Below are positions 1 through 36,799 of a stretch of DNA of 64,000 nt, in pieces. Numbering within the stretch: position 1 is the stretch's first letter; each line of letters opens with the position of its first letter. The notes under the pieces are model-generated. The model was not told the DNA's origin and searched no databases. It saw only the letters and a list, made by a program, of their open reading frames with translations. This DNA is from Nemertoderma westbladi (lineage: Eukaryota; Animalia; Xenacoelomorpha): NCBI GenBank assembly GCA_032718475.1, contig JAUCBJ010002919.1:1-64000 (forward strand), written 5' to 3'. A program made the position numbers and the translations under genes.

Positions 1-1902
1 GGGCGGACGAGGGACAACGGGCGACAAATTGTGAATATTTCGCTCGGGGTCCAGGACCTGAACTGTCTCTTGGGCAGTTCTGCGGGGCACAGGTAGCTTA
101 GTGCTATGCAGAGGGAATTTAGAGGTAGTTTCAGGGAGCACATGTGTGTCTATCACCGAAGGGGTGATTTCAAGAACAGGCCTAATTATTTCAGGCTCAT
201 CTACTATCGTAGGGAGTCTTTCTATTTTAATTATTTGGTCTGTGGGCTCTGTACTACCTAAGTTGGTGTTATTTAGTTGCCTTCTAACAGCTGGAGGCAA
301 ATCAGGCAATTTCTGACGGTGGAATGTTCTTTTACGTCTGCTTAGGCGGGATCGATTTCCTCCGCCTTCAGTGTCGGTGGTATCGCCTTCCTCAGATGAT
401 GTATAACCTTGTCGTTTGGGAGTAGATCGATTCATCATCTGCATATTACTAGCTGTTAACTGTTTATTAAAGTTATCTTGCCTCTCTTGAAGATTTTCCA
501 ACTCTAGTTGGGTTGTCTCTTCAGATGCCCTCCGTTCTGCTTCTGCCACTGCCATCTTTCTTTCCGCTTCTGCCGCTGCCGCTTTCCTTTCCGCTTCTAC
601 GGCTGCAGCTGCCGCTTTTGCCTCTGCCGCTGCCGCTTTTATTGCTGCAGCTGCCGCTTTTGCCTCTGCCGCTGCCTCTGCTGCCTTTCTTTCCGCTTCT
701 GCCGCTGCCACTGCCGCTGCTGCTGTCTTTCTATCTTCTATACGTTTTTTCTTTACTTGTTCTTCTTGAACCTTGGCGATGCGGAGTTGTTCATCGAATT
801 TAGCTTGGTTCGCCGCTAACCTATCCACATCAATTGCATCTAACACAAGTTTGGCTCCTTCGCTGTTAGGGCTAAGTCCCTCCAGCCTTCTCCTCAACTC
901 GTCATCTCCTAAAAAACGCTGATAGTCTGACAGATAGATGTCAATGGCATCCTTCTTATGCGGTTTCTCTGCCGTCGCTTCACTTTCCACTTGGGAAAAA
1001 GTAGCGTCTGTTGATTCTCCATGGGTTGAGCGCTCCTCCAACTGAGCTTTCCACTGAGCTGCTCCTTGAACCTGGCGACTCACCCGTTGAAACCAAGTCT
1101 TTACGGCAACTTGCAACGACGTGTCTTGTTTTCTTTTAGAAGCCTCCTCAAAGGCGGATAAGATTAGTCTAATCCGCAGAACTCTTTCTCTAACTTGATA
1201 AAGCAGCTGTCCCTGCTCTTGAGGTCCTTGAGGTTGTTGAAACAGTTGTCTCTCTACTCGCTCCATAGAGCTGAAGAATCCCTGGGCGTATCCGGCTGCG
1301 GACCTCTTCCATACAGCTGGATCGATGGTTTCCTTGGCTACTCCCATCCGGTGTATGTCTTCCCAGGCAGCTTCTGATAAATCAAACGGGAGTCCGGGTC
1401 CGGGGAAGTTCCATTGCGACTCGACAATAGACTTCAGTTCTTCACTCGTGTATCCCGCGTAGCTATCTCTAGTTGACCGTTGACTTCTCGCCCAATCGAT
1501 CTGGTGTTCTTCCACCGCGATCAATAACCCAGCGAGCACGGCTGCAGGAAGGATGAGAAGGGGATCCGTATAAACCGCATCCGTCATCTCTGCTCCGCTC
1601 TCGGGTGTCAGCTCTACAGTATCCTCACTACTGGAGCTGCTGGGCCGCTGAGGAATAAGTTCTTGACTAGCGGGTTGTTGCTGTTCCGCTGCCTTTTGGT
1701 CCCGCTTGACCTGAGCTCGAGTGCCTATGATAGACCTACGATGTTGGACCAGCCTAGGTTCTGTTATTACTACTGGAGGGATGACCTTCCTCACAGTGGG
1801 AGGTGAACTGGATTTACGACCAGACGTTTGTACGTCTCTATCTGAGTCGCAGATAGTTACATCTAATAAACTGTCTGACAGGTTCTGCTTAGTATCAGAC
1901 AT
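1..1902 (-). CDS. gag: Gag N-terminal region of copy A, 634 codons open and running off the window edge
   Basis: Manual translation from ATG at 1902 (MSDTKQNLSDSLL...DAIDIYLSDYQRFLG...AAAEAKAAA...LPDLPPAVRRQL...) has no stop down to base 1. Homologous to B ORFs 10779-11642 and 11410-13956. Presumably absent from the ORF track because it has no stop in the window. Confidence 0.85.
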   Translation of the reverse strand, partial: MSDTKQNLSDSLLDVTICDSDRDVQTSGRKSSSPPTVRKVIPPVVITEPRLVQHRRSIIGTRAQVKRDQKAAEQQQPASQELIPQRPSSSSSEDTVELTPESGAEMTDAVYTDPLLILPAAVLAGLLIAVEEHQIDWARSQRSTRDSYAGYTSEELKSIVESQWNFPGPGLPFDLSEAAWEDIHRMGVAKETIDPAVWKRSAAGYAQGFFSSMERVERQLFQQPQGPQEQGQLLYQVRERVLRIRLILSAFEEASKRKQDTSLQVAVKTWFQRVSRQVQGAAQWKAQLEERSTHGESTDATFSQVESEATAEKPHKKDAIDIYLSDYQRFLGDDELRRRLEGLSPNSEGAKLVLDAIDVDRLAANQAKFDEQLRIAKVQEEQVKKKRIEDRKTAAAAVAAAEAERKAAEAAAEAKAAAAAIKAAAAEAKAAAAAVEAERKAAAAEAERKMAVAEAERRASEETTQLELENLQERQDNFNKQLTASNMQMMNRSTPKRQGYTSSEEGDTTDTEGGGNRSRLSRRKRTFHRQKLPDLPPAVRRQLNNTNLGSTEPTDQIIKIERLPTIVDEPEIIRPVLEITPSVIDTHVLPETTSKFPLHSTKLPVPRRTAQETVQVLDPERNIHNLSPVVPRPP

Positions 1903-2034
1903 GACTATGTATACCGTTGAATGTCTACTGCTGTATTACAGTCTGAGTAAGTCTAGTAACTCAGTATGAACTGCTAGCCTAGTAATTAATTACCGTTACT
2001 GCTACTCAGTGTAGCGTGATATATATATAATATA

Positions 2035-2295: not shown

Positions 2296-3249
2296 AATTA
2301 TTTTAAATAATTGAATTTCTGAATTTTTAGGGTTACTTGGTTACTTTACTTACTTTATTACCGTTATTTGAGCAGTAATCCAACTGATATTGAGACCTAA
2401 TGGTTGTATGGTAGGCCTACGATTTATAAATCGTTAGATTTGATTTATAATATTATATATACCCGTTTTAGTGGGTTTTGTCAATGTTTGAAATAAATGT
2501 TATTATTTCTGGGGAGTAATCACTACACAAAGCGGTGCGCTTTCAATGAAGTGTTACTTATAAGACACTAAAACAAATAATTCTAATTTACCTAAGTTAC
2601 TTAATACTACAAATTACGTACAATTCGGGTGAGATTACAATCTCTAAATAAACACAAAAATTTACAAAAAACACAAAATACGAATTTTTTAGGGTAATTT
2701 TACAAGAAGTCTACAAACCAGCCTAACAAAGGGTTAGAAAACTGGTTATTACACGGACAGGGTACTACGGTGTTTTGAAATAATAAGTAGTAGTAAATAC
2801 ACTGCGTTGTCTAGATAGGAAAATACCACCGCCTGACGACCTATAGCCGTATCGCTATAGGTTCTACGTTATGTATCACGGAGTGTTCCTACCTAGAAGT
2901 TAATAGAGCTAATCGAATGTGCCTATCAACCACTTTACAACACAAATATAATGCCTACACTAATTATTCTCGGAAAGCACTGTACACTAAACCCTAAATT
3001 AGGTACGAGTACTTGTACAACAGATAATCAGTAATTAAATATACTTGAACAGCTAAAAGAACCACGGCATCTGCTGGAGTGACCGATGCACAAAATCACC
3101 AGTCTTTACCTACGCCAAGCAGCCCGTGTAGTACCGAGGTTAATTTAACTATAGCGGTATGTATAACAAACACAATTACTGTAGGAACAAACTTGGGGAC
3201 TTGAATGTTGCGAATAATCGCATAAACTCTGAATAATAAATATTACGCT

Positions 3250-3830
3250 ACGCGTACAAACTACTCAAACAAAATACAGACCGAACACTGACAGACTACT
3301 ATCAAGCCTAAACAAACTACGGTATATGCAGACTCCGAAATGATTAGGGAGTATGCGCTCTAACCCAGTAGTGCGACTTATTCTTTAGTTGGGGGTTTAC
3401 CTTACCGCATTGGCTGCCCCTACTGCCTAATCGTACTTAATCGGACAGATGATCTACACACGCGGCAATCCGTTCAGACCTAATAACAGCCAGACAACTA
3501 TCCAGCCTACAAATTATTTAAATAAAATTATACGCTACCCGTACAGACTTACACAAACAAAGTACAGACTAAACGATGGCAGACTACTCTCAAGCCTAAA
3601 TAAACCACAGGACATGCAGACTCCGAAATGATTAGGGAGTATGCGCTCTAACCCAGTAGTGCGACTTATTCTTTAGTTGGGGGTTTACCTTACCGCATTG
3701 GCTGCCCCTACTTCCTAACCGTACTTAATCGGACAAGTGCTCTACACACACTGTAATCCGTTCAGACTTAACAGCAATCAGACAACAGCTCAGCCTACAA
3801 ATTGTCTGTACAATCTGATCAGGTTTACAC
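3250..3830 (-). repeat. ~289 bp tandem duplication in the leader of copy A
   Basis: gcagactccgaaatgattagggagtatgcgctctaacccagtagtgcg... at ~3328 and ~3617. Confidence 0.85.
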
Positions 3831-4095
3831 GCCTTCTGTTCAATACTGGCCTACAAATAAATAAAACTGACAGAAATAAGTAAGCTCCAAAAGAAACAAG
3901 GGGTGTACAGTCCCTAATCTCTTAAACAGCCTACCGGTATACAACAATCAAATCGAATAATACTAGTGTACTTATACGGCAGTACCGGTTCTAGCGGTTG
4001 GGCCTACTGACCTACAGGTGTACTGTTCAGGTTTACCGGTTGACCGGTACTTTCAACTTTATTGCTTACTGCAATAAAGAAGCTATATCCTTTAA

Positions 4096-5335
4096 TGTTC
4101 GCGCTTTCAGACCTTTGGCAGTTTAACCCACCAAATTAAGATGTCTTCTAGATATTAAATCAGTTTTTAGTCTATGACAAGTATTTGATTCACTACACTA
4201 GTCGAAACCAATCCGTGCGCGACCATTCACCCGCTGGAGATTCCCGGGAGATTGGGTTCGACGGTTTAATTTTATTGCTATGTAAGCCTAATGTATTATT
4301 CGACTGACAGTATTATATAATCTCTGACAATATTATTCACCTTCGGGAATATTAACAGTTCCTTTAGGACGTGGCGCTTTATCTATATAAACAGAGTTAT
4401 GACTTAAACTACTCACAACGATATGGCTTAATTATAATTCACATATATGGCGCATTCTTTAGGAATTGCTTCTTTAACAGACTCACTCATACACAATGCT
4501 GCACAATACTGCACACTAATCTGCCAATCTTCACTGATTTTAGTCACATATAAAAGGAACACAGACTGAATCATGTAGGGTCTATCAAATAACATTAGAT
4601 TCACTTCAAACCACTTTAACATAAGTCACAATCGTTATTGGTAACCTTTCTCTCTTACCTTCGGTATATCAAGAATATTGGGTTTCGGGGTTATTTATCG
4701 TTATTCCAAATATAATAATTCATCAACCATATTATGAAGAACTGACAGTAAATAGCAGTATAAAACAACAACTGAACACTGATTGTTATGAGTTTGCAAT
4801 GTTTCAGCAGTCAGCATGTATGATCAGTCAGCAGTGATTCCATGAGTCAGGTAGTCGTTAAAGGATATATGCCCTTTATAATTAAACCTACTAGTGTAAG
4901 ACTAAAAACAGTAAAGCACAAAATACTTCCAAGCCGTTCTTTCTTTGGCTCAGGACTGAATGTAAACACTGCACATAGGCATTGCGTCATTTCTCGGAAA
5001 TTTTCTGTACAAGGAGCCACAAAAACGCTCTAATTGGCTGACTGAACTGAGAGACGCCGTAGAACAAAGGAAATCAACACGTATGAATGTCAGCTGTTAA
5101 CCGTAGTCATAGTAACTACTGTTCAAGAGTAGCTATCACCCCTTTGCGTCACGAATTGCCATAGAATCATAAAATATGCCTTTCACAGTACACATACGGA
5201 GGAAATAGGTCTTAGATCCTCTAAAAACACCGATACAGCAATAATACGGTCTCTTACACTTATTAAATCAACTACAGAGTATTTTAATGTAAAAGATAAT
5301 AAAAATAACGGGGCAATTCAGCAAAGGCTTTTACA
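4096..5335 (-). repeat. 5' LTR of copy A (1240 bp, TG...CA)
   Basis: Both ends homologous to the ends of B's LTRs. On the minus strand, a TATA-like TTTATATAG near 4390 and AATAAA near 4275. Confidence 0.85.
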
Positions 5336-6330: not shown

Positions 6331-7339
6331 CAACTTATTGCTTGGCAATAACTGTAGAATTGCAATATTGGTAGCCACCGTTAGTCTGTTTATTCACCTT
6401 TTTTATTTGTTGCGTCTGTAAATAGTTTAAAGACTATATAACAAACGTTTGCAACCCACTTACTATATTGGGTTTTACCTATTGCGGTTCAAGGTCAAAC
6501 GCCAACTGGTAGACACGAATTAATTAAATTACTTCCGTCTGTGGACTAGCCTTATACCACATATGTCACATATACACAGTGGTGACATATGTTACATATG
6601 CACAATGGAAACCATAGTAAGTGGGTAGGTTGACACAATGGTAATCATAGTAAGTAGGCGGGGCAAGAGCCGTTCGGCAAATTCTTTAACATGGTAGACT
6701 ATGGCAGACGCTGTTTCATTTAAGTTGTTTACCTTACTACTTGTAGTGTATACGTTATAGACCTGCTATATGTACTACTATATCAAAGCTACTACTATTA
6801 TTTCAAATATGACTCGTTTTGTAACTCTGTCTGCACATTCCAATATTTAAAATTAGTTAAGTGGGGTACACAATTTTGGTCAAAAATAATTCGCAATTAT
6901 TTTTATGATCAATTATAATGCACGATAAAATGGTGTTCCAAATCTGAAAACCTCTATTTAATAGCTCTTTTAGTTTTCAAGTTCTAACAATTTCCATTTA
7001 GGGATTCCTATTGAAATTACTATTACTATGTATAAGGAAAGGTTGATTATCTCCAAATATTTTTTTAGGAAATTGTCAACTTCAAAACCCTACTACTTCT
7101 ACAATTTTTATGCAATTAGATTTTAATTAGCAATTAATTTTTTGCGCAATTTATGTGGGGTTTACAAAGCAACCCTGCATAAAAGTATCAGACAACGTTT
7201 TGAAATATTTAGTTAATAAAATGTAATACTATTTATAACAAACGTAAAAATTAACATAAATTTGCAGCGCCACCTAGAAGTGCAGGTTTATTTTCATTTG
7301 TTGCCCCATCCTTGATCTATCATATAAAAAAATTTCATG

Positions 7340-8535
7340 TGTAAAGGCTTTTGCGTAATTAGCCGGTTATTTTCCCCGTGAAGTACTCTGTAGTTGGTTT
7401 ACCAGGCATAAAAGGGCCGTGTCCTTACTGTACTGGTGTTTTAGAGGACATAAAAGTAATTTCTTCTGTATGTGTACTTTAGCGGACATAATCCGCAATT
7501 CCATGACGCAAAAGCCGAAATACTCTTGGAACAGTGTAGTTACTAAGACGAAAGCTAATAGCTGAGCTGTACACGTGGAGCCTCTGCACGGAGCCTTGGT
7601 TCTTTGTTCTGCTCAGCTCAAATGACGACATCTATCAGCTGTGTCCACGTCAGTTCGACCAATCAGAGATTTTCCCTTTGTGTGAAAGCTGTACAGCAGA
7701 ATCCCATGATTCAGTACTGACGTTTCCCCCACGCCTAAGAACACCGGCCGGGGAATGTTTTCTGACATTAGAGCGTCTTTAATTATAAGATCATCAAACT
7801 GTTATCTCGGTTTTGGTACAGCACCTTGGTCAACTTGGTTAAGTACACTTGCATTATTTACTGCTATTTACTGTGTTGTTAATTGTATCGTTCGTTTACA
7901 TATTATTATTGGGAAGAATATTGATAACGATCCGAAACCCCAATCTTCTTGATACACTAAGGTTAGAGAGACCGGTTACATATAACAATTTGCGACATAC
8001 ATTATCGTGGTTTGTAGTGAGTTCAATGCTACTTAATAGGCCCTACAAATGTCGCTGCTGTTCTCTTTATATATGATTAAAATCAGTGAATATCGGCAAT
8101 TCATGTATGCAGTTGTGTGCAATAGTCTGTGTGTGCTTGACCGAGTAACAAAGCATTTCCTAAAGAATGCACTTTGGTGATCTATAAGACATACCGTTGT
8201 GTATAGTGTAAGTCATTGCTCTGTTTAAATAGATAGAGCGCCACGTCCTAAAGGAACTGCTAATATTTCCCGAAAGTGAATAATATTCGTCAGAGATTAT
8301 ATATTAACGATCAATCGAATAGTACGGTAGGCCTGCACCGCAATCAAATTAAAGCATCCAAATCCAGTCTCCCGGGTATATCCAGCGGGTGAATGGTCGC
8401 GCACAGACTGGCTTTGGCTAATGTTAGAATTATTATAGGTGTTCAATACTTGTCATAGGCTGGAGTAGATTTATAACCTAGAAGACATATAGATTTGGCG
8501 GGTTGAACTGCCAAAGGTCTTCAAAAGCGCGAACA
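7340..8535 (+). repeat. 5' LTR of copy B (1196 bp)
   Basis: Direct repeat of 17938-19134, with about 8 differences counted by eye (~99%). Confidence 0.97.
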
Positions 8536-8879
8536 ATAACAGTTTGTAAAATTCTTGATTGCAGTGTAGGCAATAAATACAGTTTAATATTGTTCTGGTA
8601 AGAACAATAACAGTTTGTAGGATCTTGATTGCGGCGTAAGCGATCAAGACTAAGGTACCGGTCGACCGGTAACCAGTAGGCCTGACTGCCTGATCACCCG
8701 GACCGGTACTTACAACAGTACAGGTATATCAGTACTATTTCGATTGTGATATTACATACCGGTAGGCTGTTTAAGAGATTAGGGACTGTACACCCCTTGT
8801 TTCTTTTGGAGCTTACTTATTTCTGTCAGTTTTATTTATTTGTAGGCCAGTATTGAGCAGAAGGCGTGTAAGCTTGCTC

Positions 8880-9430
8880 AGTTTATACAGACAATTGGTA
8901 GGCTGGACTGTTGTCTGGCTGTTGTTGGGTCTGAACGGATTGCAGTGTGTGTAGAGTCTGTCCGATAAAGTGCCAGTTAGTAAGTAGGGGCATCTTGAGT
9001 TGTAAGGTCAACCCCCTCTTAAAGAATAAGTCGTACTACCGAGTTAGAATGCATACTAACTAACCATTTTGGAATCTGCATATACTGTAGTTTATTTAGG
9101 CTTGATAGTAGTCTGCCAGCGTTTTAGCCTGTGTTTGTTTGTGTGGTCTGTTCAGGTACCGTAATAGTTATTACTCAGATATTTTGTAGGCTGGATTGTT
9201 GTCTAGCTGTTATTAGGTCTGAAGAGATTGCTGCGTGTGTAGAGTCTGTCCGATAAAGTGCCAGTTAGTAAGTTGGGGCATCTTGAGTTGTAAGGTCAAC
9301 CCCCTCCTAAAGAATAAGTCGTACTACCGTGTTAGAACGCATACTAACTAACCATTTTGGAATCTGCACATACTGTAGTTTTTTTAGGCTTGATGGTAGT
9401 CTGCCAGCGTTTGGTTTGTATTTTGTTTGA
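8880..9430 (+). repeat. ~288 bp tandem duplication in the leader of copy B
   Basis: tagagtctgtccgataaagtgccagttagtaagt... at ~8952 and ~9240. Confidence 0.85.
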
Positions 9431-10778
9431 GTATTCTGTACGGGTAGCGTAATATTTATTATTCAGAGTTTATGCGATTATTCGCAACATTCATGTCCCC
9501 AAGTTTATTCCTACAGTAATTGTGCTTGTTACACATACCGTTATAGTTAAATTAACCCCGGTACTACACGGGCTGCTTGGCGTAGGTAAAGACTGGTGAT
9601 TTTGTGCACCGGTCACTCCAGCAGATGCCGTGGTTCTTTTAGCTGTTCAAGTATTTTTAACTACTGATTATTTGTTGTACCAGTACTTGTACCTAATTTA
9701 GGGTTTAGTGTACAGTGCTTTCCGAAGGTAATTAGTGTGTAGGCAGTATATTTGTGTTGTAAAGTGGTTAATAGGCACGTTGGTTCTGGTAGACCGCGGT
9801 AATTAACTTCTAGGTAGGGACACTCCGTGATACATAACGTAGTACCTATAGCGATACGGCTATAGGTCGTCAGACGGTGGTATTTTCCTATCTGGACAAC
9901 ACAGTGTATTTACTACTACTTATTATTTTCAAATACCGTAGTATCCTGTCCATTGTAATAACCAGAAAATCTAACACTCTGTTAGCCTGGTTTGTAGTTC
10001 CCTGTAAAATTACCCTAAAAATTCGTACGTAATATTTTTGTTGTGTTTAGTTAGAGATTTAATCTCACCCGTATCGTAAGTAATTCGTAGATAAGTAACT
10101 TAGGAAGTAGAATTATTTGTTTTAGTGTCCAATAAGTAGCACTTCACTGAGAGCGCACAGCTTCTGTGTAGTGATTATTTCCCAGAAATAGTAACATCTA
10201 TTTCAATATTGTAACAAAACCCCTCATACGGGTACATATAAATCCACTAAATCTATCAATAAAATAGTAGGCCTGTTATACAACCTTTAGGTCTTAAAAT
10301 CAGTTGGACTACTGCTCAAATAACGGTAATAAAGTAAGTAAAGTAACCAAGTAACCCCTAACATTCAGAAATTCAATTATTTAAAATAATTGACATACCG
10401 GTATTTACAATAGGCTTATTATATTTATTCTATAAATTTAGGCTGAAATCATACCGGTATTCTGTAATTAATTCTAGTCTGTAATAATTATACTTATATA
10501 TACTATAAGTGTCAGCTGTATACCGGTATTCACGATAGGCCTATTATATATTTATATATATTTGTGCTAAAATTATATACCGGTACTCTGTGACAAATCT
10601 AGTCTGTAATAATACTTATATATCTACTATAAGCATACAGGTATTCTAATATATTATATATATCACGCTACACTGAGTAGCAGTATCGGTAATTAATTGT
10701 TAGGCTAACAGTGATACTGAATTACTAGACTTGCTTTAACTGTAATATAGCAGTAGGCATTCAACTGTACAATCAAAC

Positions 10779-13700
10779 ATGGCTGACACAAGGCAAACTC
10801 TGTCAGATAGTCTCCTAGAAACAACAGCCTGTTTCTCAGATCAAAGTGTAGAGAATCCCAGACCGAGGTCTGAAACCCCTCATACTGTAAGAAGGGCAAC
10901 CCCTGCAGTGGTTGTGTCAGAACCTAGGTTGGTAGGAGCGATTTCACAATTTGCGAAGTTAGTGAAGCGCCGTTGGTCTGCCATAGGCACTCGGGCCCAA
11001 GTCAAGCGGGATCAAGAAGCAGCTATAAAACAGCAGCAACCTCCTAGCCAAGAACCTAGTTCTCAGCGGCCCGATAGCTCCAGTAGTTCGGATACTGTTG
11101 AGCGGACGCCCGAACGCAGAGCGAAGATGGCGGATACGGTTTATGATGAGCGGCCAACCTATGAAGAATCAACCGACTCCACTTCTTCTCAAGAGGAAAG
11201 CGAAGTGGAAAGCGAAGTGGAAGGCGAATTAACAGCAGAGAAGCCGCGAACTAGAGACGCCATTGACATCTATCTGTCAGACTATCAGCGATACCTAGGA
11301 GACGAAGAGTTGAGGAGACGACTGTCTGGACTTCGCCCTAATAGTGAAGGAACCAAGCTTGTGTTGGACGCAATCGATGCGGAAATGTTAGCTGCAAACC
11401 AAGCTAAATTTGATGAAAAACTCCGCCTCGCTAGAGTCCAAGAAGAAAGGACAGAAAGAAAGACAGAAAGGAAGGAAGGACAGAAAGGCAGTAGCAGCGG
11501 CAAAAGCGGCAGCGGCAAAAGCGGCAGCGGCAGTGGAAGAGGCAAAAGCGGCAGCGGCAGTGGAAGCGGCAAAAGCGGCAGTGGAAGCAGCAAAAGCAGC
11601 AGCAGCAATGGCATTGGCAGAAGCAGAACAGAGAGCGTCTGAAGAGACCACCCAACTGGAGTTGGAAAATCTTCAAGAGACGCAAGACTGCATAAATAAA
11701 CAGTTAACTGCTAGTCAAATGCAGATGATGAGTCGATCTACTCCCAAGCACCAAGAATACACATCATCGGAGGAAGGCGAGACCACCGATACTGAAGGCG
11801 GAGGAAATAGATCTCGTCTAAGCAGGCGTAGAAAAACATCTCACCGTCACAAATTGCCTGATTTGCCCCCAGCTGTTAGAAGACAACTAGCTAGCACAGA
11901 CTTAGGTAGTACAGAACCCACAGACCAAATTATTAAGATCAAAAGACTCCCTACGATAGTAGATGAGCCTGAAATAATTAGGCCTGTCGTTCCCAAAGCC
12001 ACTCCTGTGCTAGAGACCCCTGTACTTCCAGAGCTTAACTCTAAATTCCCTTTACACAGTACTACACTGCCTGTACCCGGTAGAACAGTCCATGAGAATA
12101 TCCCTGTCCTGGACGCTGAGAGAGAAATCAAAGATTTGTCTCCCGTCGTCCCGCGTCTGCCCGCTACAATGTTGGCGACTCCTCCCGCTTCGGCGGTCGA
12201 GTGGGTAGAGGAGGGACGGCGGGGGATGAATCTCCTGCTCGGACAGATGCAGGAGACTGTCCACCAACTCAAGGGAACATTAAGGGAAAGTATGTTAGAA
12301 TTGCAAGAAGTGCAGCAAAGTATCGCGCTAGAACGCGACAAATTAGTCAATATACAAAAGGGTATACCAATACCCCCTGTAACATTGTGTCAACCTGTTA
12401 GGTCTGAAGTATTACATGCGCAAGGTGTGGAGCCTACACGCATCTATACTGCTAGTGAAGTAGAAACTCATATAGCAAACCCTATTAAGGGTGATTATAA
12501 ACCTGTTGTTAATGATATTCCCTATAGACCTGATAATAATCCGAGAAATTCATATACCGATAATTCGATATTAAATAACACGATGGCCCAAGAAAGCTTT
12601 ACGCGTCAGATGGCTAGAACAGAAGCCCGCCAAGCGGTCAAAGTGGGAGAGATCGTTAAATTCAATGGAGATGAGATGAAATGGTTACCTTTCAATGAAT
12701 ATTACAAAGATAGCATACAGAACTCTGTACTATCTAACGGAGAGAAACTTAGATTCCTCATCAAGTGCTTGGAAGGACCTCCCAAGTTAATGGCGTTAAA
12801 GTTTATTGGACATCCAGATGGATTAAGACAAGTTTGGGATACATTAAACATCAGGTATGGTAACAAGGATAACATAGCTAAGTATTTGTATGCAAAATTA
12901 GTAGCCCCCAGAAACTTCCTTAGTAGCGGGATTATAGAGTTTTCCGATGAGATTCAGGAGATCTGTAGACAATTGGACTGGTTAGGTAAGTCTCATGAAT
13001 ATCAGAGTTCCATGGTTATTGGAGCAGTAGTCTCTACTTTACCAAAGGGTGGAGTATGTACACGTTGGGACAAGAAAGTGTTGTATATGAATGAGCAGCA
13101 ACGACGAGGCCCTACCATGGCTGATCTCATGTCCTTCTTAGATAGTGAAGTAAAATTACAACTCATAAAGCAGTCCAGAGAGAAAACATCGGAAAATAAG
13201 GTAAGTGAGAAACCCGTTTCTAGGAGAAGGGTAACACCAGTGTGTTATACTGACGACGGCGAAAGCCAAGCTTCTCAAGAAGAGGACAGCGGGAAAGACA
13301 CAGCAAAATCTTACTATGACAACAAGACCTATAAAGACGTAAGTAAATATAAGTCTCGAACCAGTGACAGGAGAGAACAGGTAACAGCAACTCCTTCTAC
13401 GTCTCCTAAGAGAATTCACGGAAGAAAGCCCGAAGAAAGAACGAGAGTGCATAACGTTACCCAAGGTAAAGTGAGTAAAATCAAACCAAAATGTGCGCTG
13501 TGCGACGGGCCCCACCGTTTGAGTGTGTGTGCTGAATTCCTAAAGAAATCCCTGGTAGACAGACGTGAAGTCATGTGGGATAAGCGGTTATGCTATAATT
13601 GCCTCAGACAAGGACACCAACGGCGAACCTGTTACTCTGACGTAAAGTGTGCAAAGTGCGGTGCGAAACATCACATCTTGTTACACAGTGAATTCGAACG

Positions 13701-14925
13701 AAACAACCCGAGTCAGGTAAGTGAGCCCGAACTACATGTCCAATTCAGTGATGTAAATGACACTGATCAAGAATCTGAGATGGAAGGATTCTATACGGAC
13801 GAATTCTCCGACGCCAACGAATCCTGTTACCTAATAAATACCGCAGTGTATCGAGCACTTATGTATGAAAAGGACACCGACAATGAGTTCCCCCCAACTA
13901 CCTTTGACAGACAACCATCTTGGAAACCTCCAACTTCCAACGTAGGAATCAGATAATTTCCTGTAGTGCAGGTAAGAGTTCACGGTCCTAACAAAAGTTA
14001 CATAGTGAACGCCCTCCTTGACTCTGGCAGCACAGGAACATTCATCGATCAAGAACTAGCCGAAGACATCTTTGCTGGACAACCCAAATTCCGAACTAAG
14101 TTGAATATGTCAGGAATTATGTAGGTTTGGAAATCTACCATAACGGCAGATTACTATGTAGGTGCGTTGTCCACCCCCCAGGATAAATTAGGAGCACAAA
14201 GTATAAGGTCAGTAAAAATGGTGGCTATAAAGAACTTCGCTACTACCGAAGTAGAACCTTATAACTGGGACGAGGACGAGAGCATCCAACAGCTTAAGAT
14301 ACCTCGATTCCAGACAGATTATCCTGGAGTGCAAATACTCATCGGCCAAAACGCGCATGAGGCACTCGAGACATTGGAGAAACGGCCTGCTCAACCGCAG
14401 CCACTACAAACCTATGCGGTAAGAACTAGAGTAGGTTGGTACTTCACTGGCCCTTCCCGTAGAACTCTCAAAGAGAGATTACCTCAACAACAGGTATACC
14501 AAGTAAAGGAATGGGAAGTGGAGAGCAGTGATGTGGACGATCCAACTGAGGGAACACCACACTCCTCAGATAATGACGATATTAACTCCAAAGTAGATCA
14601 ATGGAGACATTGCCTTGGGACGATTAATCCAGCCGACATCGCTTCCAGAGGAGCAACTCCTCAAGAACTGATAGATACTCCAGGCTGGTTAGGTGGATCC
14701 GACTTCTTAAGTAAAGAAGAAGAAGAATGGCCTCCTCATCTTACCACGGCGGAGATTAGACAGGCCAAGGGAGCGGATAAAGTAACACAACAACTCAATC
14801 GCCCAGCTGGTCGTTTATGTTTACTGGAAAGAGACCGAAAACTGTCCGGAAACTATGGAAGGCAAGATACTCTTCCTACGACCACTTCCTTAATCCGACA
14901 AATATCTAGGGACTCCATAACGTAA
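10779..14925 (+). pseudogene. gag-pol: Disrupted gag-protease-(deleted pol) reading frame of copy B
   Basis: Frameshift near 11470 (copy A is in frame there). Capsid motif KFNGDEMKWLPF...LSNGEKLRFL. Knuckles CALCDGPH..C, CYNCLRQGH..C and CAKCGAKHH.LLH. In-frame TAA at 13954, then protease ALLDSGSTGTFI, TAG at ~14121, RTRVGWYFTGP, RNase H tail QWRHCLGTINPADIASRG...W..G..FL...EWP and integrase C-tail RPAGRLCLLE. No RT YxDD motif and no integrase core. Confidence 0.9.
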
Positions 14926-16559
14926 TAAAATATGGAGTGGGCGTGTGACTATATCATTTTATATTTGTTTTTATTTTATATTTATGTATGTATTATTATG
15001 TAATTTTATTATAATCGTTTTCTTTAATTTTATTTAGTAGAATGTTATTTTAGTGATTATTTAGTAGATTAGTGCAATATATTAGTGTTTATTACGTACG
15101 TAATTACTTATAATATATATTTAGTGCGCTGGCGAGAAATAATTATTTTTCTCTTTCCTTACTGTCCGTATCATATTATAAATACGTGACTACAGTAAGA
15201 TGAAATGTCCGTACTTATTAAAGTACAATAAAGCCACTACTATATTCAAGTATTATTGGTAGGCAGAGTATTAGGAATGCAAAGTTCAGATCCTCGTGTC
15301 TCGGCTAAACCAAGCTCTGGGTAGACCTTGGAAACGACTTGCCTCTTCACACTGACATTGCTTCGTGCGATATTGCTCTCATACCATATATAATAATACA
15401 TATAGTAGCGTGATGTCCCTCTAACAGTAGCGTGAAACGCAAATAAATCTGTTAAACCTTTTGACCATCTGTAATTCTAGTCGATTAAGATATCGCGGCA
15501 CCCACCGATATACTTGAAAGACAAATTCTAGAATCAGTGGTTAACGTCCCCAGACAAGTTCTGGAATAAATTGGTGCCCATCTCAAATATTAATTATTTA
15601 ATATTTACAAATCTATAAATCAAAATCTGTAAAATTCAGATCCTTTAACAATTCTAGTCGATTAAGATATCGTAGCACTTACCGATACTCTTAAAAGACA
15701 ATTTTCATAGAATTAAGGATCCTATGTCCCCAGACCTGCTCTGGAATCAAATTGTGTCAATTGTACTATCAAATAATAAAATTTCAGGGAATAAATTTAA
15801 ATTCATATTTTAATGAATTTAATAAATTGTCATTCTGTGCAATTTATAACATTCCCAAAATCTATTAATTAATAGATCACGGGAGCGGAGATTCATCCTA
15901 TTAAGTGTGTTAGAGTGTGAGAATCTGCCATGTATGAGTCAATAGCCGATAAAATTTATAAAATCATATATAAACGAGATATTGGACCATTAAAGAATTA
16001 CTATTAAATAGCATCCCAGATCTGTATGCATTGGAATTACCCTAATTCTACCGCTAGCTTTCCATAATGTCACCATAGTAACACCTACGCTAGAATTAGA
16101 AACAAGTTAAAAAGAACAATAGAAAGCTTGCCCCATTGCATAGTAAGAAATAAATAGCGCACTGCTAGTATCCAAGGATACATAATAATAACGTGGCATT
16201 CTGGAAGGCACTGACTAATGGACAAATGGCCCGAGTGTGTGTAATTTGTGACAGTTGTGTGTATGGAATTTGTGAGTTTATAGGCGAATGTTACTACTAA
16301 GGTGTGTTTACAGTAGCGAGTCGCAATTGTGAAAGTAACCCTAACTCTCCAGTAAGAACCTGAAGTGTATCTAAGCCTTTGGGACGGACAGTGGAGTGAC
16401 TCGTGCTAGTGTCGTTGTCGTTGTGTAGCTACACGTTGGCGGAAAACACAGCGGCGACGATACATTTGCGCTGAGGCTCTTACACTGTCCGGGGGCTGAT
16501 TGGGGTAGGCAGCGACGCTCGCTAGCCTAATTATAAGCTCATTATAATATTAATAAACT

Positions 16560-17859
16560 CATATATAGCAGATATAACGGAGTTGATAGAAGATGGTCTT
16601 GGTATTGGGGAGCGATATACTCTACCTTTACAAGTGTTTGTTGATAGCTTGATACGCAGCGACGCTAGTCCAACTACTACGAAGGACGATGGTCGTTATA
16701 TCGAACCGACGATTTCCTAGAAGCAACTTACGCGTGAATTGGACTATGGAAAATTCACCGCTCGCTACACGCATCGTAATAGTACGTATATGGACTTCTT
16801 AACCATTGGCCATTCTATCGATTCACACGATACGGACTATGTCGAACATATATCCTACCCAGCGGAGTCGGAACGATAAACTGAAATTCGAATGCGAAAA
16901 TTCTATTCGAAATGGACTCGAAAGAAAAGACATTAGAGAGACAAATGGACGCGGTAACTCTAACGTATATTTGGAATTCTTGATAGAAGCATTGTAACAA
17001 CAAATAAATATCATCTGCGTTTCCCCTACCAGACGTGCGTCTTTGGTATTATTACGATAAATGCCCTAGACCCAACTAATAAACGGAAAGACATAAACAT
17101 CCACGGAAACCGAAACTTGTTCGACATATCACCTACGCTCGCTCGACTCAGACGATCCTTGAGTAAACCTACGATCATAGTTCCGGAATACTCGGTCAGA
17201 CCACCTCGTTCCTTGATTAGACCTCAGACTTTTGAGTCTGATGGTATCCCGGATCCTCACGAGCTGTATTCACTGTTCAAAGATCTAGTGCTACCCTAAC
17301 AATTAATCGGTAACACTCCGGCAGCGAGCTCTAGCTAGCCGCCCATCTTACCTAGCCGTATTGGGACGCGGACACCTAATATCACCATTCAACCGTATGG
17401 TCGTCCCAGTTTAACGCGATACAACCCTTCATCAAGGTGAAGGAGAGCGTTGTACGAAACGAGTTAAACGCTATTCTACAAAGATCAGAAAGGAAACCTG
17501 CGTTTGTTCAGATAAACGTAAGTTATAACAGCAAGTCCAAGCGGTAAATGAATTGGCTTTATCTCAGTTCGATTGGGAAATCTTGAATCTCTAAGAAGAT
17601 ATCGAGCTTAGACAACCCTATTCTCTGCGAGAGTTTTGGACGAGCGTGTCCAACGACAAGCGGAGGAAAATCAGCTCGAGGAGAAGTAGATCGAAATGGA
17701 CGAGACACTGACCGTAACCCTAAACCTTCTGATGCAATGGTATTGCACCCTTCACCCAGGAGTTACAGCCCTCCTAGTAAAGTGGCTCGCCCCAAAGAGA
17801 AAAGGACTCTTGCCAGCCTCAAAAAGCTGCGTAAACGCCGTCCGCGTAAGAAAGACTAA
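16560..17859 (+). pseudogene. Decayed accessory ORF between the pol remnant and the 3' LTR
   Basis: Coding-like composition; pieces in different frames read KL*QQVQAVNELALSQFDWEILNL*EDIELRQ, ARVLDERVQRQAEENQLEEK*IEMDE and a basic end LKKLRKRRPRKKD*. Several stops and frameshifts; no family recognised. Confidence 0.4.
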
Positions 17860-17929
17860 CTGTTTAGAGTATTTTTATATTTTAGAAACTGTGATTTGTT
17901 ATATTTTATAGACTTAAATCCCATTTTCT

Positions 17930-17937
17930 GGGAGCGG
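17930..17937 (+). other. Polypurine tract (plus-strand primer) of copy B
   Basis: GGGAGCGG immediately before the TGT of the 3' LTR. Confidence 0.7.
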
Positions 17938-19134
17938 TGTAAAGGCTTTTGCGTAATTAGCCGGTTATTTTCCCCGTGAAGTACTCTGTAGTTGGTTTAC
18001 CAGGCATAAAAGGGCCGTGTCCTTACTGTACTGGTGTTTTAGAGGACATAAAAGTAATTTCTTCTGTATGTGTACTTTAGCGGACATAATCCGCAATTCC
18101 ATGACGCAAAAGCCGAAATACTCTTGGAACAGTGTAGTTACTAAGACGAAAGCTAATAGCTGAGCTGTACACGTGGAGCCTCTGCACGGAGACTTGGTTC
18201 TTTGTTCTGCTCAGCTCAAATGACGACATCTATCAGCTGTGTCCACGTCAGGTCGACCAATCAGAGATTTTCCCTTTGTGTAAAAGCTGTACAGCAGAAT
18301 CCCATGATTCAGTACTGACGTTTCCCCCACGCCTAAGAACACCGGCCGGGGAATGTTTTCTGACATTAGAGCGTCTTTAATTATAAGATCATCAAACTGT
18401 TATCTCGGTTTTGGTACAGCACCTTGGTCAACTTGGTTAAGTACACTTGCATTATTTACTGCTATTTACTGTGTTGTTAATTGTATCGTTCGTTTACATA
18501 TTATTATTGGGAAGAATATTGATAACGATCCGAAACCCCAATCTTCTTGATACACTAAGGTTAGAGAGACCGGTTACATATAACAATTTGCGACATACAT
18601 TATCGTGGTTTGTAGTGAGTTCAATGCTACTTAATAGGCCCTACAAATGTCGGTTGCTGTTCTCTTTATATATGATTAAAATCAGTGAATATCGGCAATT
18701 CATGTATGCAGTTGTGTGCAATAGTCTGTGTGTGCTTGACCGAGTAACAAAGCATTTCCTAAAGAATGCACTTTGGTGATCTATAAGACATACCGTTGTG
18801 TATAGTGTAAGTCATAGCTCTGTTTAAATAGATAGAGCGCCACGTCCTAAAGGAACTGCTAATATTTCCCGAAAGTGAATAATATTCGTCAGAGATTATA
18901 TATTAACGATCAATCGAATAGTACGGTAGGCCTGCACCGCAATCAAATTAAAGCATCCAAATCCAGTCTCCCGGGTATATCCAGCGGGTGAATGGTCGCG
19001 CACAGACTGGCTTTGGCTAATGTTAAAATTATTATAGGTGTTCAATACTTGTCATAGGCTGGAGTAGATTTATAACCTAGAAGACATATAGATTTGGCGG
19101 GTTAAACTGCCAAAGGTCTTCAAAAGCGCGAACA
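17938..19134 (+). repeat. 3' LTR of copy B (1197 bp)
   Basis: Direct repeat of 7340-8535, followed by TSD TCATG. Confidence 0.97.
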
Positions 19135-19499
19135 TCATGCGATTAAATTCAAAACTGTAAAAGCCTTAGGGTTTTAAGAGCAACCAAGTTTTTTTCATTG
19201 TTAACTAGTATTAACTAATATTAAAAATTCATACAACATCAAAATATATATTTTCATGTTTCTTCTATCAGAATCTATCAGATCTTAATTTGTAACGTGC
19301 CATAAATGGCATATACTACAAAATGTTTCCAATTGATTAAGCGCCCATTAAACCTATTTAGGCCTATACCATAATACAGTAATATCATAGAAAGCATCTT
19401 GGGAAAATTCTAAATTTTGCTATTTGGTCTAAATTTTCACATTTACCTACGTAACTTTTCATAAACATTGGCGTACTTTTGTTCACATACACATCACAT

Positions 19500-20503: not shown

Positions 20504-21052
20504 TACGGAAGCCCATAACGGCCATGTCGCGCGCAAACTTCCATGTCAAGCGCGCAAACTTTATGCCATTTCCGTGTAGAAACATTTGCGCGCGCGACAT
20601 GGAAGTTTGTGTCTCGACATGGAAGTTTGCACGCGCGACATGGAAGTTTGCGCGCGCGACATGGAAGTTTGCGCGCGCGACATGGAAGTTTGCGCGTGCG
20701 ACATGGAAGTTTGCGCGCGCAAACTTCCAGTCTGCGCGCGCAAACGTTCCATGTCGCGCGCGCAAACTTCCACAGTTCCATGTCGCGCGCGCAAACTTCC
20801 ATGTCGCGCGCGCAAACTTCCACAGTTCCATGTCGCGCGCGCAAACTTCCATGTCGTGCGAGCAAACTTCCATGTCGCGCGCGCAAACTTTCATGTCGCG
20901 CGCGCAAACTTCCATGTCGCGTGCGCAAACTTCCATGTCGCGCGCACAAACTTTCATGTCGCGCGCGCAAATGTTTCTACATGGAAATGGCATAAAGTTT
21001 GCGCGCTTGACATGGAAGTTTGGGCGCGACATGGCTGTTATGGGCTTCCGTA
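20504..21052. mobile_element. Fold-back MITE with internal 19-bp tandem repeats; IS3EU-like termini
   Basis: TIR TACGGAAGCCCATAAC...GTTATGGGCTTCCGTA with long inverted arms. 6-bp TSD CCTATA at 20498-20503 and 21053-21058. Internal unit GCGCGCGACATGGAAGTTT in both orientations. TAY..RTA ends with a 6-bp TSD fit IS3EU. Confidence 0.8.
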
Positions 21053-22099: not shown

Positions 22100-25000
22100 C
22101 TAATGGCGGTACAATTAATATAAACGTAAGGGGGATAGGCAATTTGCCTAGTGAGGGCCTACAAGGCCACGCAGTTGCGCAGGGAGGAACGTGGGTGGAT
22201 AGACCCAGTGAGGATAGAACAAACGTGTTGACTGGAGGGGAACATGGGCATGGGGGCGAAACAAGAGGTGACGGGTGGGGGGGGGGGGCTACGAGCACCC
22301 CACCACAACCAATTAATGGCGAGAGGGGGGGGCAGTAAACGGCCCACGAGTGTCGGCAGATAACTGGATAATGCGTGCGGTGAGTTTAGTGAACCGTGGC
22401 ACCCGACGATGGAGGCAAGGGGGGGGGCAACAGAGGCCCCACGGGCGTCGGCAGAAAATGCGCGCAGTGAGTTAAGTGGACCGTCTGACCGTGGCACCCG
22501 ACGAAAGAGGATAATAGGAGGACTGCGAATACCCGCGGGGCCATCCAACTGGACAGAGGGAGGGACGTTGGTGCCGTAAGTGGCCAAACGAGGAAACGTC
22601 GAGCCCACTCGGAAGACGAAAGAAGAACAGTGGAGTTCATCTGGGAGGTCAATACAAGATCTCGTGAAGGAGGACATTGCGCTGACATTAAAGGAAGCAA
22701 GGAGGGAAGAGGAAGTGTTGCTACGGGCAACCAGAGAGAAAGGATGGACAGTGAACCGTCGATAGTCAAAGTGGAGAAAGTGAGTCAGTGGGGTCGTACG
22801 CGTACCGTACTCCGGGACATTGCTGTCGCCCCAAAGAAACACAACCTGGCGAAATATACCACACACCGGGAGAGGGGTACAGAGTGTACCGGTATGAGGA
22901 AGAATACAGAAGAAGGGATCGGAGCAGAGGGAAACTTCCCGTCGGAACATAGCTGCCGATTGAGGATATGGTAGTCTCGGGGAGGAGTTCTCAGAATATT
23001 CAAGAAGTTTAAACTTCGATCTGGAAGGGCACAGGCAGACTGCAGGACATACTGTAGGCCTTACTGCACATCTATAGGCCATGCTGGGAGAGATAGTGTA
23101 GGCAATAGGGTAACGCGAATGCCAGGATTGGACCCGGAGGTCGTGGTATACATACCGGTTAGTAGGCAAGAACCTGATAGGCCTATACCGGTACCTGCAC
23201 ACCAATATGACTATAACATGCAGGGATACAATATATATCCAGAAGAGGGGGGGGGGGGGGTATTGCAGATAGGTGTATGGGCCCCAATATAATATCATCA
23301 ACCCCAGTACCATCGGTGGGGGGGGGGGGGGGGGGGGGCAGGGTGACATTCCCCCATTACAGTATCCACAATATACACAACCCAAAACAAGAACCCCTAC
23401 CCACTCAGATCCAAACAAATCGTGCGATACAGAGATATGGAGGGAACCGCTACCCCCGATGATATATCCCACTCAGGGAAAGTCGAAGGGCCCGGTAGGC
23501 GAGCCGCACCCAACACCAAAGGAGCCTGTATCACTACCATTGAGTGTGCTAGAAGTACAAGCGATGGGAATGGCAACACTCATCGAAGCGCTAAAAACTC
23601 GAATTGAGCAGCCACCAGTGGAGCCCTTCAAGTTCGATGGTAGTAAGCCAGAGGAATATCTAAAATTCCGGCGTATGTACAGCAATGAAATCTTAACAAA
23701 AAATCTCACGCAGGCGGAGTGCCTTAAATATCTACAAGTCTATACAGTGGGGCCAGCTTACGACATCATGAGGCAATACCAAGTATTGAAGGAGGATTCA
23801 CGACTGCATGGCGAGGAGCCCTGGACAGGGAATTCGGCCATCCTGCGAAGATTATCCGACAAACCTTAAGGGGAATAACATCAGGCGGACTCGCAGATAA
23901 CCTTGTTAGCATCAAGACTTTTGCTAACAAAGTAGAAAAGGCGCTAATAGTATTAAAGACTCTAGATGCACCTTACGAACTCAAAGCATCAAACAACATC
24001 ACCACGATAGCACAGGCACTACCGATCTAGCTGAGAAACTAATGGAGAAAGATCATTTCTCCACTCGAGAAAAGAAAGGTGCGGAGCCAGGGTTGGGGGA
24101 GATGTCGAACTTCCTTAACTACGAGGTGGAGTTAATCACAGATCCAGTCTATAGTGAGGACAATCTAGGAAAGGCACCAAAAACCGAATACAGCCGACCT
24201 AAACCCGAACATAGTGCAGCAAATGCTCTTCCGAAGATGAGGCAGTCGCTACCGTACGCGACCACGCAGGGGGGGACTTCTAGTCCACAGATAGCTGGGA
24301 GTAGAGCCACACCGTGGCAGGGACAGAAACAAATACAAACCCAATACCCCAAGCAGGCTAAGTCCAAGTAACCAAAACACTAAACCACTAGATATGAATC
24401 TACGCGCAATATGTGAAGCGCTATTCAAGGAACGCTACAACCCCGAATACAAATGCCAGTTACATAGGTTCGGTACACATAAGACCATCAACTGTAAACA
24501 CTGGCAGGCATTGCTTAAACAAGATCGGATAGCCTACACGGTAAGAATGGACTATGTCATCGATGCGCGGTAGGAGGACACAGGATGGATGAGTGCCAGG
24601 AACCGCAGATAAAATACGACGAGACGGATGGGACTGGAGGCCAGGGACAGGACGAGGGAGCAGAAGAACAACTCAAGAGGCTGCTACGGCAGGACTTCAA
24701 GGGGTTGAAGGAGACCGGGGTCGGAACCTTGGTGGAGGATAAACAGGCGCAGGAGAGCATCAGGAACTCGATGAAATGTGAAGGGGGGCGATATACCATA
24801 GGAATGGTATGGAAGCAACCGAAGGTGCCACTGCCAGACAATAAGAGGATGGTCTGGACTAGGCTTCAAAAATTAAAGCAGACGCTTAAATGGAGCCCCG
24901 AAAAGGATGCATACTTCCACAAAACAATCATGAAGTACGTGGATAGAGGATGGGCCGTGGAACTACCGGTTGACGAACCAAACACCGATAGGACCTACTA

Positions 25001-25577
25001 TTTGCCACTCCATGTGGCTTTGGACCCTAAGAAGGGCAAACTAAGAATGGTGGTCGACGCGTCTGCCAAGACTAATGGCAAGAGCCTGAATGACTACCTG
25101 CTAGAAGGCCCCAATATCTACAACTCGGAGATAGAGGTCCTGCTAAGATTTAGAAATGGAAAACATGCCTTCACGTGCGATATAGATGGCATGTTTAATC
25201 AAGTGCGAGTGATGGAGGAGGACAGCGATAGTCAGCGCTTCCTGTGGTACAATGGCGACGAAGAACCGTCGGAGAAACCGATGTACAAGATGGTAGTGCA
25301 GAACACGGGGGCCAAGTCGTCCTCGTTTACTACGACTACAGCAGTAAGAGACACAGTGGAGGGCAAAGAGGGGGAATACAGTGAGAAAGCGATTGACATG
25401 ATTCGAAGCGGATTCTATGTGGATGATGGGATGGACTTTGGAAACTCGATTGAAGAGATACTCGATGTAGGGTGCGAAGTTCACGACATCCTGAAGGGAT
25501 CAGGATTCAACCTCACAAAATTCCAGTCCAACTCTAAAGAATTTATGGAGGCCATAGAAGATAAACAACCTCACTAA
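22100..25577 (+). mobile_element. Degenerate BEL/Pao retrotransposon of a different family: gag pieces and RT
   Basis: Gag EPFKFDGSKPEEYLKF...LKYLQVYTVGPA and knuckle remnants. RT YYLPLHVALDPKKGKLRMVVDASAKTNGKSLNDYLLEGPN, DIDGMFNQV and FYVDDG. Frameshifts; truncated at 25577. Confidence 0.88.
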
Positions 25578-31870: not shown

Positions 31871-32630
31871 AAAAGGTTCACGTGCGATATCAATAATTGG
31901 TACATTTGCAACAATATTATGCGAACTTTTCAGCGTTCTGGTGTTTTACTCTTAACGCAGTAAAGTTCCGTATTGCAGCGTTGCGGCCTATAGGACGAAC
32001 CTACTTATACTTCTATAACTAACTATCACTAACTATATACTATCACTAACTTAGTAATAATATCTCTTAAACACGTCTGGATTCTTCTGCATTTCTCTAG
32101 CTTTATAGCAACCATTATATGCTAAGTTAATGATTGTTTACCGTAACTTTGTTGTAATAACTGCAATTAATTAGTGATACAAATTAAATTGGATGTGAAT
32201 TACATCAATATTCCTAATTATTCCAATAGCAAAATGAAAACTTTAAAAAAATCGGAAATACTCGAACTTTTCTGAGAATTAACTATTTAGATAAACCAGC
32301 CCCCACTAAATTAGAACTCTTTTATGGAATATAGTTTAAATAAAACGTGCAGCCATAAGCACTGGAACTTTCAATACAGTTGGTTGCATGCATTATATTA
32401 AATAATATTAGGTTTATTTTAAGTCTTATTATACGGTTATACGGCTGCATATCATATTTCAACATTAATTCAAGTGCCTCAATCTATTTAGATAGACCAG
32501 CCATTACATGTAAACTCACGTCTGAGATAAAGTTTAAATAAAAGATGCAGCCATAAGAACGGCTTCTCAAAAAAACATAATTCGAAACTCGTAGCTAGCA
32601 GTACATCCGTTATTAGGAACCGAATCGTGG

Positions 32631-33540: not shown

Positions 33541-33591
<51 letters not shown>

Positions 33592-34004: not shown

Positions 34005-34040
<36 letters not shown>

Positions 34041-35904: not shown

Positions 35905-35940
<36 letters not shown>

Positions 35941-35953
35941 TACTGACTGACTT

Positions 35954-35991
<38 letters not shown>

Positions 35992-36664: not shown

Positions 36665-36799
36665 AATTTGGGGCGGTAAAAAGTATATGGTGCGAAAACT
36701 ATGTAATCTGGGAAAGAATAAGTTGTGGTCAAAATATATTATGTAAGACTGATCGACAACAGTTTATAGGCCACTAAACAAGAAAATTGATTTTGCAAT

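Follow-up and report, generated by a model that had tools for sequence, protein, structure and literature searches.

Two related LTR retrotransposons in the window (the whole stretch of 64,000 nucleotides analysed here), element B on the plus strand and its diverged relative, element A, on the minus strand, probably prime reverse transcription with their own RNA, as judged from the nucleotide sequence. The array of hairpins in the 3' part of their LTRs would then be the scaffold of a Tf1-like fold for self-primed reverse transcription, a reading to which we give a probability of roughly 0.6. Four features seen in the sequence carry the case for self-priming: a tRNA-type primer site is absent, the 11-12 nt that follow the 5' LTR are the complement of a stretch within the same LTR, a 12-pair stem covaries between the two elements, and two further duplexes could form. 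The features and their coordinates are collected in Table 1.

Table 1. Features of elements A and B in the window
Feature	Position	Strand	Remark
5' LTR of element B	7340..8535	+	1196 nt, TG...CA ends
3' LTR of element B	17938..19134	+	repeats the whole structured region
5-bp target-site duplication of B	7335..7339	+	second copy at 19135-19139
gag of B	10746..13956	+	frames that overlap, interrupted between 11392 and 11642; two in number
Protease and short RNase H-side pol remnant of B	13957..14925	+	
Short purine-rich tract	17930..17937	+	precedes the 3' LTR of B
5' LTR of element A	4096..5335	-	1240 nt
gag start of A	1..1935	-	runs off the window
Primer-binding position of B	8536..8546	+	directly after the LTR, no TGG
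Candidate self-primer of B	7795..7805	+	perfect complement of 8536-8546
Primer-binding position of A	4084..4095	-	directly after the LTR, no TGG
Candidate self-primer of A	4858..4869	-	perfect complement of 4095-4084
Second copy of the primer-binding sequence	8607..8617	+	in a 71-nt leader duplication
TATA-like motif	7784..7789	+	starts 11 nt before the candidate primer, in A and B
23-nt block identical in A and B	8237..8259 (A 4378-4356)	+	sequence conserved
LTR arm of the LTR:leader duplex	8331..8347	+	pairs with 8555-8571
Leader arm of the LTR:leader duplex	8555..8571	+	in A, a local hairpin as alternative
Poly(A)-signal-like hexamer	8348..8353	+	no other lies at an aligned position in the two LTRs
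Stem 1 of B	8358..8417 (8358-8370 with 8405-8417)	+	encloses a 34-nt core
Stem 1 and core of A	4202..4261	-	
Inner hairpin of the core	8371..8389	+	4-bp stem kept, loop variable
Core arm	8394..8402	+	8 of 9 pairs with 8527-8535, invariant in A and B
LTR 3' end	8527..8535	+	partner of the core arm, adjoins the primer site
Stem 2	8451..8487	+	weakly supported
Stem 3, terminal hairpin	8494..8515	+	8 pairs, one one-sided change
Stem 4 of the sequence-only reading	8257..8293	+	unsupported

Element B is 11.8 kb long in total, with a long non-coding 3' part, and its 5' and 3' LTRs show 8 differences. Its Gag contains a DUF1759 domain (PF03564, E 1.5e-12) and three zinc knuckles, its protease is recognised at E 3.5e-4, and its pol remnant aligns with a BEL polyprotein at E 5e-8. 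B is a young yet non-autonomous element, the latter because neither a reverse transcriptase nor an integrase was found in it. The 3 kb from the pol remnant to the purine tract (14925-17930) hold short frames only, the last of which (17587-17859) has a basic tail, and possibly represent a decayed extra gene. Element A is 81% identical to B over 8257-8535; its other end and its pol lie outside the window, and the LTR pair and target duplication are established for B. The leader, 2.2 kb in both elements, contains a tandem duplication of about 290 nt (8888-9467; 3238-3803 in A). A splice-donor-like motif is present inside the LTR at 7962 (4659 in A) and a tandem acceptor-like motif just before the start of gag in both elements (around 10750 in B), and splicing could yield a gag mRNA from which the primer site is missing.

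The best 150 representatives listed as relatives of the Gag protein are all distant BEL/Pao proteins with 24-44% identity; the eight that were scanned all carry DUF1759, and six of these eight also carry Peptidase_A17. The Gag search gave 2 matches among longer proteins and none among proteins of near length, and the alignment of the BEL polyprotein against viral contigs returned no relative. The ICTV profile of the Belpaoviridae describes priming by host tRNA from an 18-nt site for tRNA-Arg or tRNA-Gly (PMC8742986). Like members of this family, A and B combine TG...CA LTRs of 1.2 kb and a 5-bp target duplication with a DUF1759 Gag bearing three zinc knuckles, a protease and a purine tract (PMC8742986 and, for the element Achilles, the accessible part of PMC4580426). 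They differ from it in that neither has a tRNA site and in that B, at 11.8 kb, is without reverse transcriptase and integrase. We file A and B as BEL/Pao-type elements that would depart from the family profile in their priming, because the 18-nt tRNA-Arg/tRNA-Gly site is absent from both. Membership of the Tf1/sushi group, whose proteins are those of Ty3/gypsy chromoviruses, was ruled out, since Gag and its relatives are of the BEL/Pao type.

There is no TGG within 60 nt of the LTR end in B or within 126 nt in A, and the tRNA-type site of the control loci described below has no match in the window at 3 mismatches. Instead, counted from the first base after the 5' LTR, 11 nt in B and 12 nt in A are complementary to stretches that lie 455 nt (B) and 466 nt (A) into the element's own LTR. 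The letters of the primer site differ between the two elements, and each site matches the LTR of the other element by 6 nt only. Shuffling the LTR produced complements this long 1 and 2 times in 2000. Among internal start points, 5 of 9281 in B reach at least 11 nt, in a stretch that includes the duplicated site, which was not subtracted; in A none of 4010 reaches at least 12 nt, and 2 reach 11 nt. When the whole region of 830-850 nt is folded, the primer duplex forms with P 0.95 in A and P 0.85 in B, there with the duplicate site. All 23 primer pairs are Watson-Crick pairs, whereas G-U pairs or mismatches occur in stem 1, in stem 3 and in each of the two flanking duplexes.

The duplicate site of B belongs to a 71-nt duplication at 8529-8651 that repeats the LTR end, the primer site and the leader arm. 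Since B's 3' LTR terminates at the first copy, the site used in the last replication of B was the one in that copy. Other copies of the family were sampled as 5846, 1641, 99 and 64 contigs from four public sequencing runs, and some of them skip parts of 8529-8651. These contigs align through the primer and then run into unlike sequence at 7804-7815, with up to 6 other letters over 7765-7804. In one of the runs the primer-binding site has a variant form. The divergence at 7804-7815 fits a constrained primer, on this sequence comparison, and would favour neither of the two start-site readings discussed below. A primer assembled across a splice junction was ruled out, as the primer is contiguous; the best match over a GT-AG junction is 10 nt in B, and A has none of at least 10 nt. 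Some copia lineages prime with half-tRNAs, from a site complementary to an internal segment of a tRNA; for A and B such priming would take two different fragments.

For comparison, we took 80 BEL loci from metagenomes, of which 11 were dropped for a short match or a contig end. The 69 that were examined comprise 8 with flanks too short, 25 without an LTR pair and 36 with one. None of these 36 LTR pairs has a self-match of at least 10 nt, the maximum being 7. Of the controls, 13 have both TG...CA ends and a target duplication, and every one of them has a TGG tRNA-type site; with a single assembly as their source and 7 distinct LTR starts among them, this control is narrow. A tRNA-type site usually begins 0-2 nt after the LTR end; in five of the control loci (L032, L043, L052, L064 and L071) it starts 5-13 nt past the called LTR end.

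The sequence-only reading of this region had proposed four stems, and every letter and coordinate that it quoted is present in the sequence. Its claim that stem 1 differs between A and B by three compensatory changes is confirmed: the stem has 12 pairs in both elements, with one further change to G-U and one unpaired column. In shuffles of the 262 aligned columns of 8257-8535, a helix of at least 12 pairs with at least three two-sided changes appeared in 0 of 500, and one of at least 10 pairs with at least two such changes in 3 of 500, results that depend on a 1-nt gap set upstream of the stem. With the gap placement of MAFFT and unbroken helices only, the region does not rise above shuffles (60, 72, 200 and 18 of 200 reached the observed counts), and the unbroken-helix covariation test on the MAFFT alignment is negative in all three regions. 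The RNAalifold consensus fold has z = -3.6 at 8352-8483, while the remaining 16 of 17 LTR windows lie between -1.8 and +0.8, and the structure signal in the LTR is confined to 8331-8535. Folded singly, B has z = -2.9 (0 of 100 shuffles) and A has z = -1.7 (6 of 100 shuffles).

These numbers bear on the reading that the stems arose by chance or are neutral in two related sequences. The independent full sequences are two, A and B; nothing beat the shuffles with the default gap of MAFFT and unbroken helices; and stems 2 and 4 are weak. That stem 1 beats all 500 of 500 shuffles argues in the other direction, and so do the other copies, among whose contigs a change at 8415 is common and one loose end has the matching change on the opposite arm, which points to a third version of stem 1 at the level of sequence. 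We consider chance the least probable of the explanations weighed here.

The 34-nt core enclosed by stem 1 is identical at 32 positions between A and B, as had been noted. It is not invariant, because two loose ends among the other copies, at 8375 and 8387, have a different loop on the short inner stem, which they retain. An exact-pattern scan of viral contigs with a 23-mer of the core gave 0 matches, as did one of metagenome contigs with a 20-mer of the LTR, and neither 12-mer end of the 3' half of the core occurs in any of the 80 metagenome BEL loci. It had been suggested that the array might be a new cis-acting RNA or ribozyme, with a core outside the hammerhead, HDV and twister consensus. 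The latter part holds, in that no Rfam family is matched and the hammerhead core motif CUGANGA is absent from the sense strand of both LTRs. The ribozyme itself is very improbable. It would agree with a covarying stem that encloses a conserved G+C-rich segment with pseudoknot potential, and a compact fold of this kind in a retroelement repeat is also what the hammerhead, HDV-like, twister, pistol and hatchet ribozymes offer; A and B differ from these by the missing Rfam match and the variable, replaceable inner loop. Searches against Rfam at E up to 10 returned no ribozyme on A or B and nothing on the LTRs within 1-31000; the region 8150-8660 gave one chance match to a lncRNA family (RMST_6, E 3.2, 17.6 bits against a threshold of 90), and the corresponding region of A gave none. 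Moreover, cleavage at the core would sever the genomic RNA in both of its LTR copies. The 2',3'-cyclic phosphate left by small ribozymes cannot be extended by reverse transcriptase, which makes them ill-suited to producing a primer. The conservation of the invariant half of the core may be explained more simply by pairing with the LTR end than by catalysis.

The remaining stems fared unequally. The terminal hairpin, stem 3, is well predicted in both elements (P 0.94 and 0.95). Stem 2 can pair with one two-sided change, as had been claimed, but neither single-sequence fold predicts it, and in B a rival helix, 8481-8486 with 8517-8522, has P 0.98. Stem 4 is absent from the folds, and the sole register tested for its middle was broken. 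The sequence comparison thus supports the broader proposal of an RNA fold under selection in the 3' portion of the LTR for stem 1 and the terminal hairpin, which appear to be real cis-acting structure, and does not support its ribozyme option. Priming was one of the functions listed in the sequence-only reading, which did not note the self-complementary primer site. Just upstream, the identical block at 8237-8259 falls where identity along the LTR is highest (0.88) but gives no consensus-structure signal (z +0.7); it is perhaps a protein-binding site or a second promoter. In the putative R region, the fold of B contains a 16-pair helix of 7833-7848 with 8131-8146 (P 0.99); the same region of A has long stems, but no common covarying helix beat the null.

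Two candidate duplexes flank the primer site. In the first, the LTR arm just before the poly(A)-signal-like hexamer pairs with the leader; it forms with P 1.0 and 0.93 in the folds of B and shows two two-sided changes between A and B. The best partner of the leader arm is the same place of the LTR in both elements, with 0 and 1 of 300 shuffles doing as well, for an arm whose limits were set after the pairing was seen; fixed 30-nt control pieces did as well as the leader arm in 6 of 135 cases in B and 73 of 132 in A. The alternative local hairpin of the leader arm in A has P 0.99. In the second duplex, the core arm pairs with the LTR end. Six pairs of this helix have P 0.96 in A, and the core is the best partner of the LTR end in both elements, against a weak null (31 and 15 of 300 shuffles). 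The helix shows no covariation between A and B. The LTR end is constrained by integrase, and the conservation of the core half could be explained by its having such a partner.

Together with stem 1, the helix of core and LTR end would have the topology of an H-type pseudoknot with a 2-nt linker, a type of fold that the folding program used cannot score. Because the primer site directly adjoins the LTR-end helix, a stack of stem 1, that helix and the primer duplex is conceivable. In the self-priming scheme that we propose, transcription would start near 7795, by analogy with Tf1, and the primer would be the 5' end of the RNA. Over a distance of about 730 nt, the first 11-12 bases of the element's RNA would base-pair with the site that follows the LTR; the core arm would join the LTR end in a pseudoknot on stem 1, and the pairing of 8331-8347 with the leader would close the domain. 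RNase H supplied by an autonomous partner would cut 3' of the primer, again by analogy with Tf1, the primer would be extended through U5 and R, and plus-strand synthesis would recopy the primer into the site. Such recopying would account both for the way in which primer and site change together, without G-U pairs, and for a complement that stops at 11-12 nt.

Several observations weigh against this scaffold. The self-priming structure of Tf1 spans about 90 nt, whereas about 730 nt would be looped out here between primer and site. The helix of core and LTR end, as described above, is without covariation and has a weak null; stem 1 is absent from the minimum-energy form of A; and in the free fold of B the LTR end pairs with the primer site instead of the core. 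The position of the TATA-like motif is a further point. The usual spacing from TATA box to start site is about 30 nt, and a motif that begins 11 nt before the candidate primer, if real, is too close for this, so that the start would lie past the primer and the primer would fall in U3.

We therefore weighed a second route, in which the complementary stretch would belong to U3, would occur solely close to the RNA's 3' end and, by pairing with the site, would join the two RNA ends. Transcription would begin past the primer under the direction of the TATA-like motif, and the primer would be contained only in the 3' LTR copy; the pseudoknot on the covarying stem would stack against the primer duplex and direct, or help to make, the cut. 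The primer would be cut from the 3' end of one genome copy, at the expense of one of the two packaged genomes, or it would be another RNA. The TATA-like motif stands 11 nt before the stretch in both elements, a second one lies near 8224, and the restriction of the structure signal to 8331-8535 is what a short R-U5 would lead one to expect. On the other hand, a primer inside a long RNA would give no reason for the limit of the complement at 11-12 nt, and an initiator-like 7-mer coincides with the primer start in B (+1 at 7796, 7 of 7 positions, one of 7 such motifs in the LTR) and in A (+1 at 4868, 6 of 7). We know of no precedent for priming by a U3 stretch that joins the RNA ends, and we regard this route as improbable; if true, it would be a way of priming unlike that of Tf1 or of any tRNA-primed element. 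If the primer is instead of the Tf1 type and begins at 7795, the TATA-like box near 8224 would not be the main promoter.

The array may also have a role other than priming. Chief among such roles is control of polyadenylation, which we consider unlikely as the main function, and which could coexist with self-priming. The hexamer at 8348 would be used in the 3' LTR, with stem 1 bringing it near the cleavage site, and in the 5' LTR pairing of the leader to 8331-8347 would mask it. In keeping with this, no other hexamer occupies an aligned position in the two LTRs. A leader arm follows the 5' LTR only, and its alternative local hairpin in A is what a switch would have. Poly(A)-type hexamers of A are AATAAA at 4276 and ATTAAA at 4270, and the AATAAA lies within the leader duplex; the hexamer of B, however, lies just outside it. 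Control of polyadenylation also leaves unexplained both the pairing of the core with the LTR end and the self-complementary primer site.

A packaging or dimerisation signal bound by Gag, with the CGCG palindrome of the core as its kissing site, is less probable still. In its favour, B keeps gag and the LTR structure while lacking reverse transcriptase and integrase, and its core holds two palindromes; structured signals near the primer site are usual in the Ortervirales. Pairing with the LTR end explains the palindrome equally well. A role of the stems in polyadenylation or packaging would also be compatible with a correct self-priming reading.

Among known systems, the closest parallel to the proposed fold is that of the Tf1/sushi group of Ty3/gypsy chromoviruses. 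According to the accessible parts of the papers, Tf1/Tf2, Tj1, Tosmo and the group at large self-prime through a 'pretzel' structure (PMC10085805, PMC7175516, PMC4600332), self-priming of Tf1 needs three duplexes, namely that of primer and site and two more in which sequence adjacent to the site pairs with the LTR downstream of the primer (PMC10085805), and the Tf1 route that served as our model runs from a self-primed start to an RNase H cut 3' of the primer (PMC7175516). A and B resemble these elements, as far as the same texts describe them, in the absence of a tRNA site, in the roughly 11 nt after the 5' LTR that complement their own LTR, and in two further duplexes, here candidates, between site-adjacent sequence and the LTR downstream of the primer. 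They differ in having a BEL/Pao Gag and no chromovirus features, in the distance of about 730 nt from primer to site, with the RNA 5' end and the cleavage being predictions here, and in that the partner of the U5-side duplex lies inside a separate covarying 12-pair stem.

The plant TAR lineages (Houba as well as Osr-1, in Ty1/copia) and the Tcn1 lineages are predicted self-primers in the part of PMC6317226 available, by a criterion of at least 10 bp of complement starting 0-5 bp past the 5' LTR, and the complements in A and B are of this length and position. Those lineages belong to other superfamilies and hosts, and are likewise predictions from sequence (same partial source). A tRNA-primed virus offers a further parallel. 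In Rous sarcoma virus, duplexes form on both sides of the primer site, one with the LTR end and one with the leader, and the virus uses a tRNA primer with short local stems. The candidate duplexes of A and B also flank the primer site and use the LTR end and the leader, but around a self-complementary site in place of a tRNA primer and short local stems. The U5-IR and U5-leader stems of the virus are cited in the accessible text of PMC3601003 and PMC5445492.

No report of self-priming in BEL/Pao elements was found in the full-text literature, which here means main texts with few subscription papers. In the accessible parts of PMC3601003, PMC6317226, PMC6934838, PMC4600332 and PMC7175516, self-priming is attributed only to the Tf1/sushi and Tcn1 groups and plant TAR, and the same holds for those of PMC10085805, PMC5445492, PMC5443660 and PMC4580426. 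Two papers on BEL/Pao elements, PMC3118150 and PMC554778, do not mention primer sites in their main text. If true, a BEL/Pao self-primer with a three-duplex fold would place the mechanism in all three LTR superfamilies and would bear on whether self-priming is ancestral or has arisen repeatedly. What the window contributes is a covarying structural scaffold around a self-complementary primer site, and A and B offer two natural variants in which entirely different primers sit on one conserved scaffold; many further copies of the family are present in the public sequencing runs. Fragments of tRNA can inhibit LTR elements through the tRNA primer site, and elements of the A/B type, if they do self-prime, would be without the site through which such fragments act.

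The rest of the window is eukaryotic and repeat-rich. The SAPS protein described below places the host no more narrowly than among eukaryotes, and an animal host is suggested by the BEL/Pao elements. A second, unrelated BEL/Pao-like remnant with gag and reverse transcriptase lies at 23273-25577, with no LTR pair in the window. The minus strand carries gypsy-like pol fragments together with two reverse transcriptase frames of non-LTR type (42926-46724, 47848-49278 and 63110-63805). Other repeats include two foldback or palindromic ones (41523-42436 and 20504-21052) and an array of about 500 copies of an 8-nt unit (32476-36760). Finally, an intron-free frame of 1001 codons on the minus strand (53031-56036) encodes a SAPS protein, a regulatory subunit of PP6 (PF04499, E 1e-68), and is either a single-exon gene or a retrocopy.
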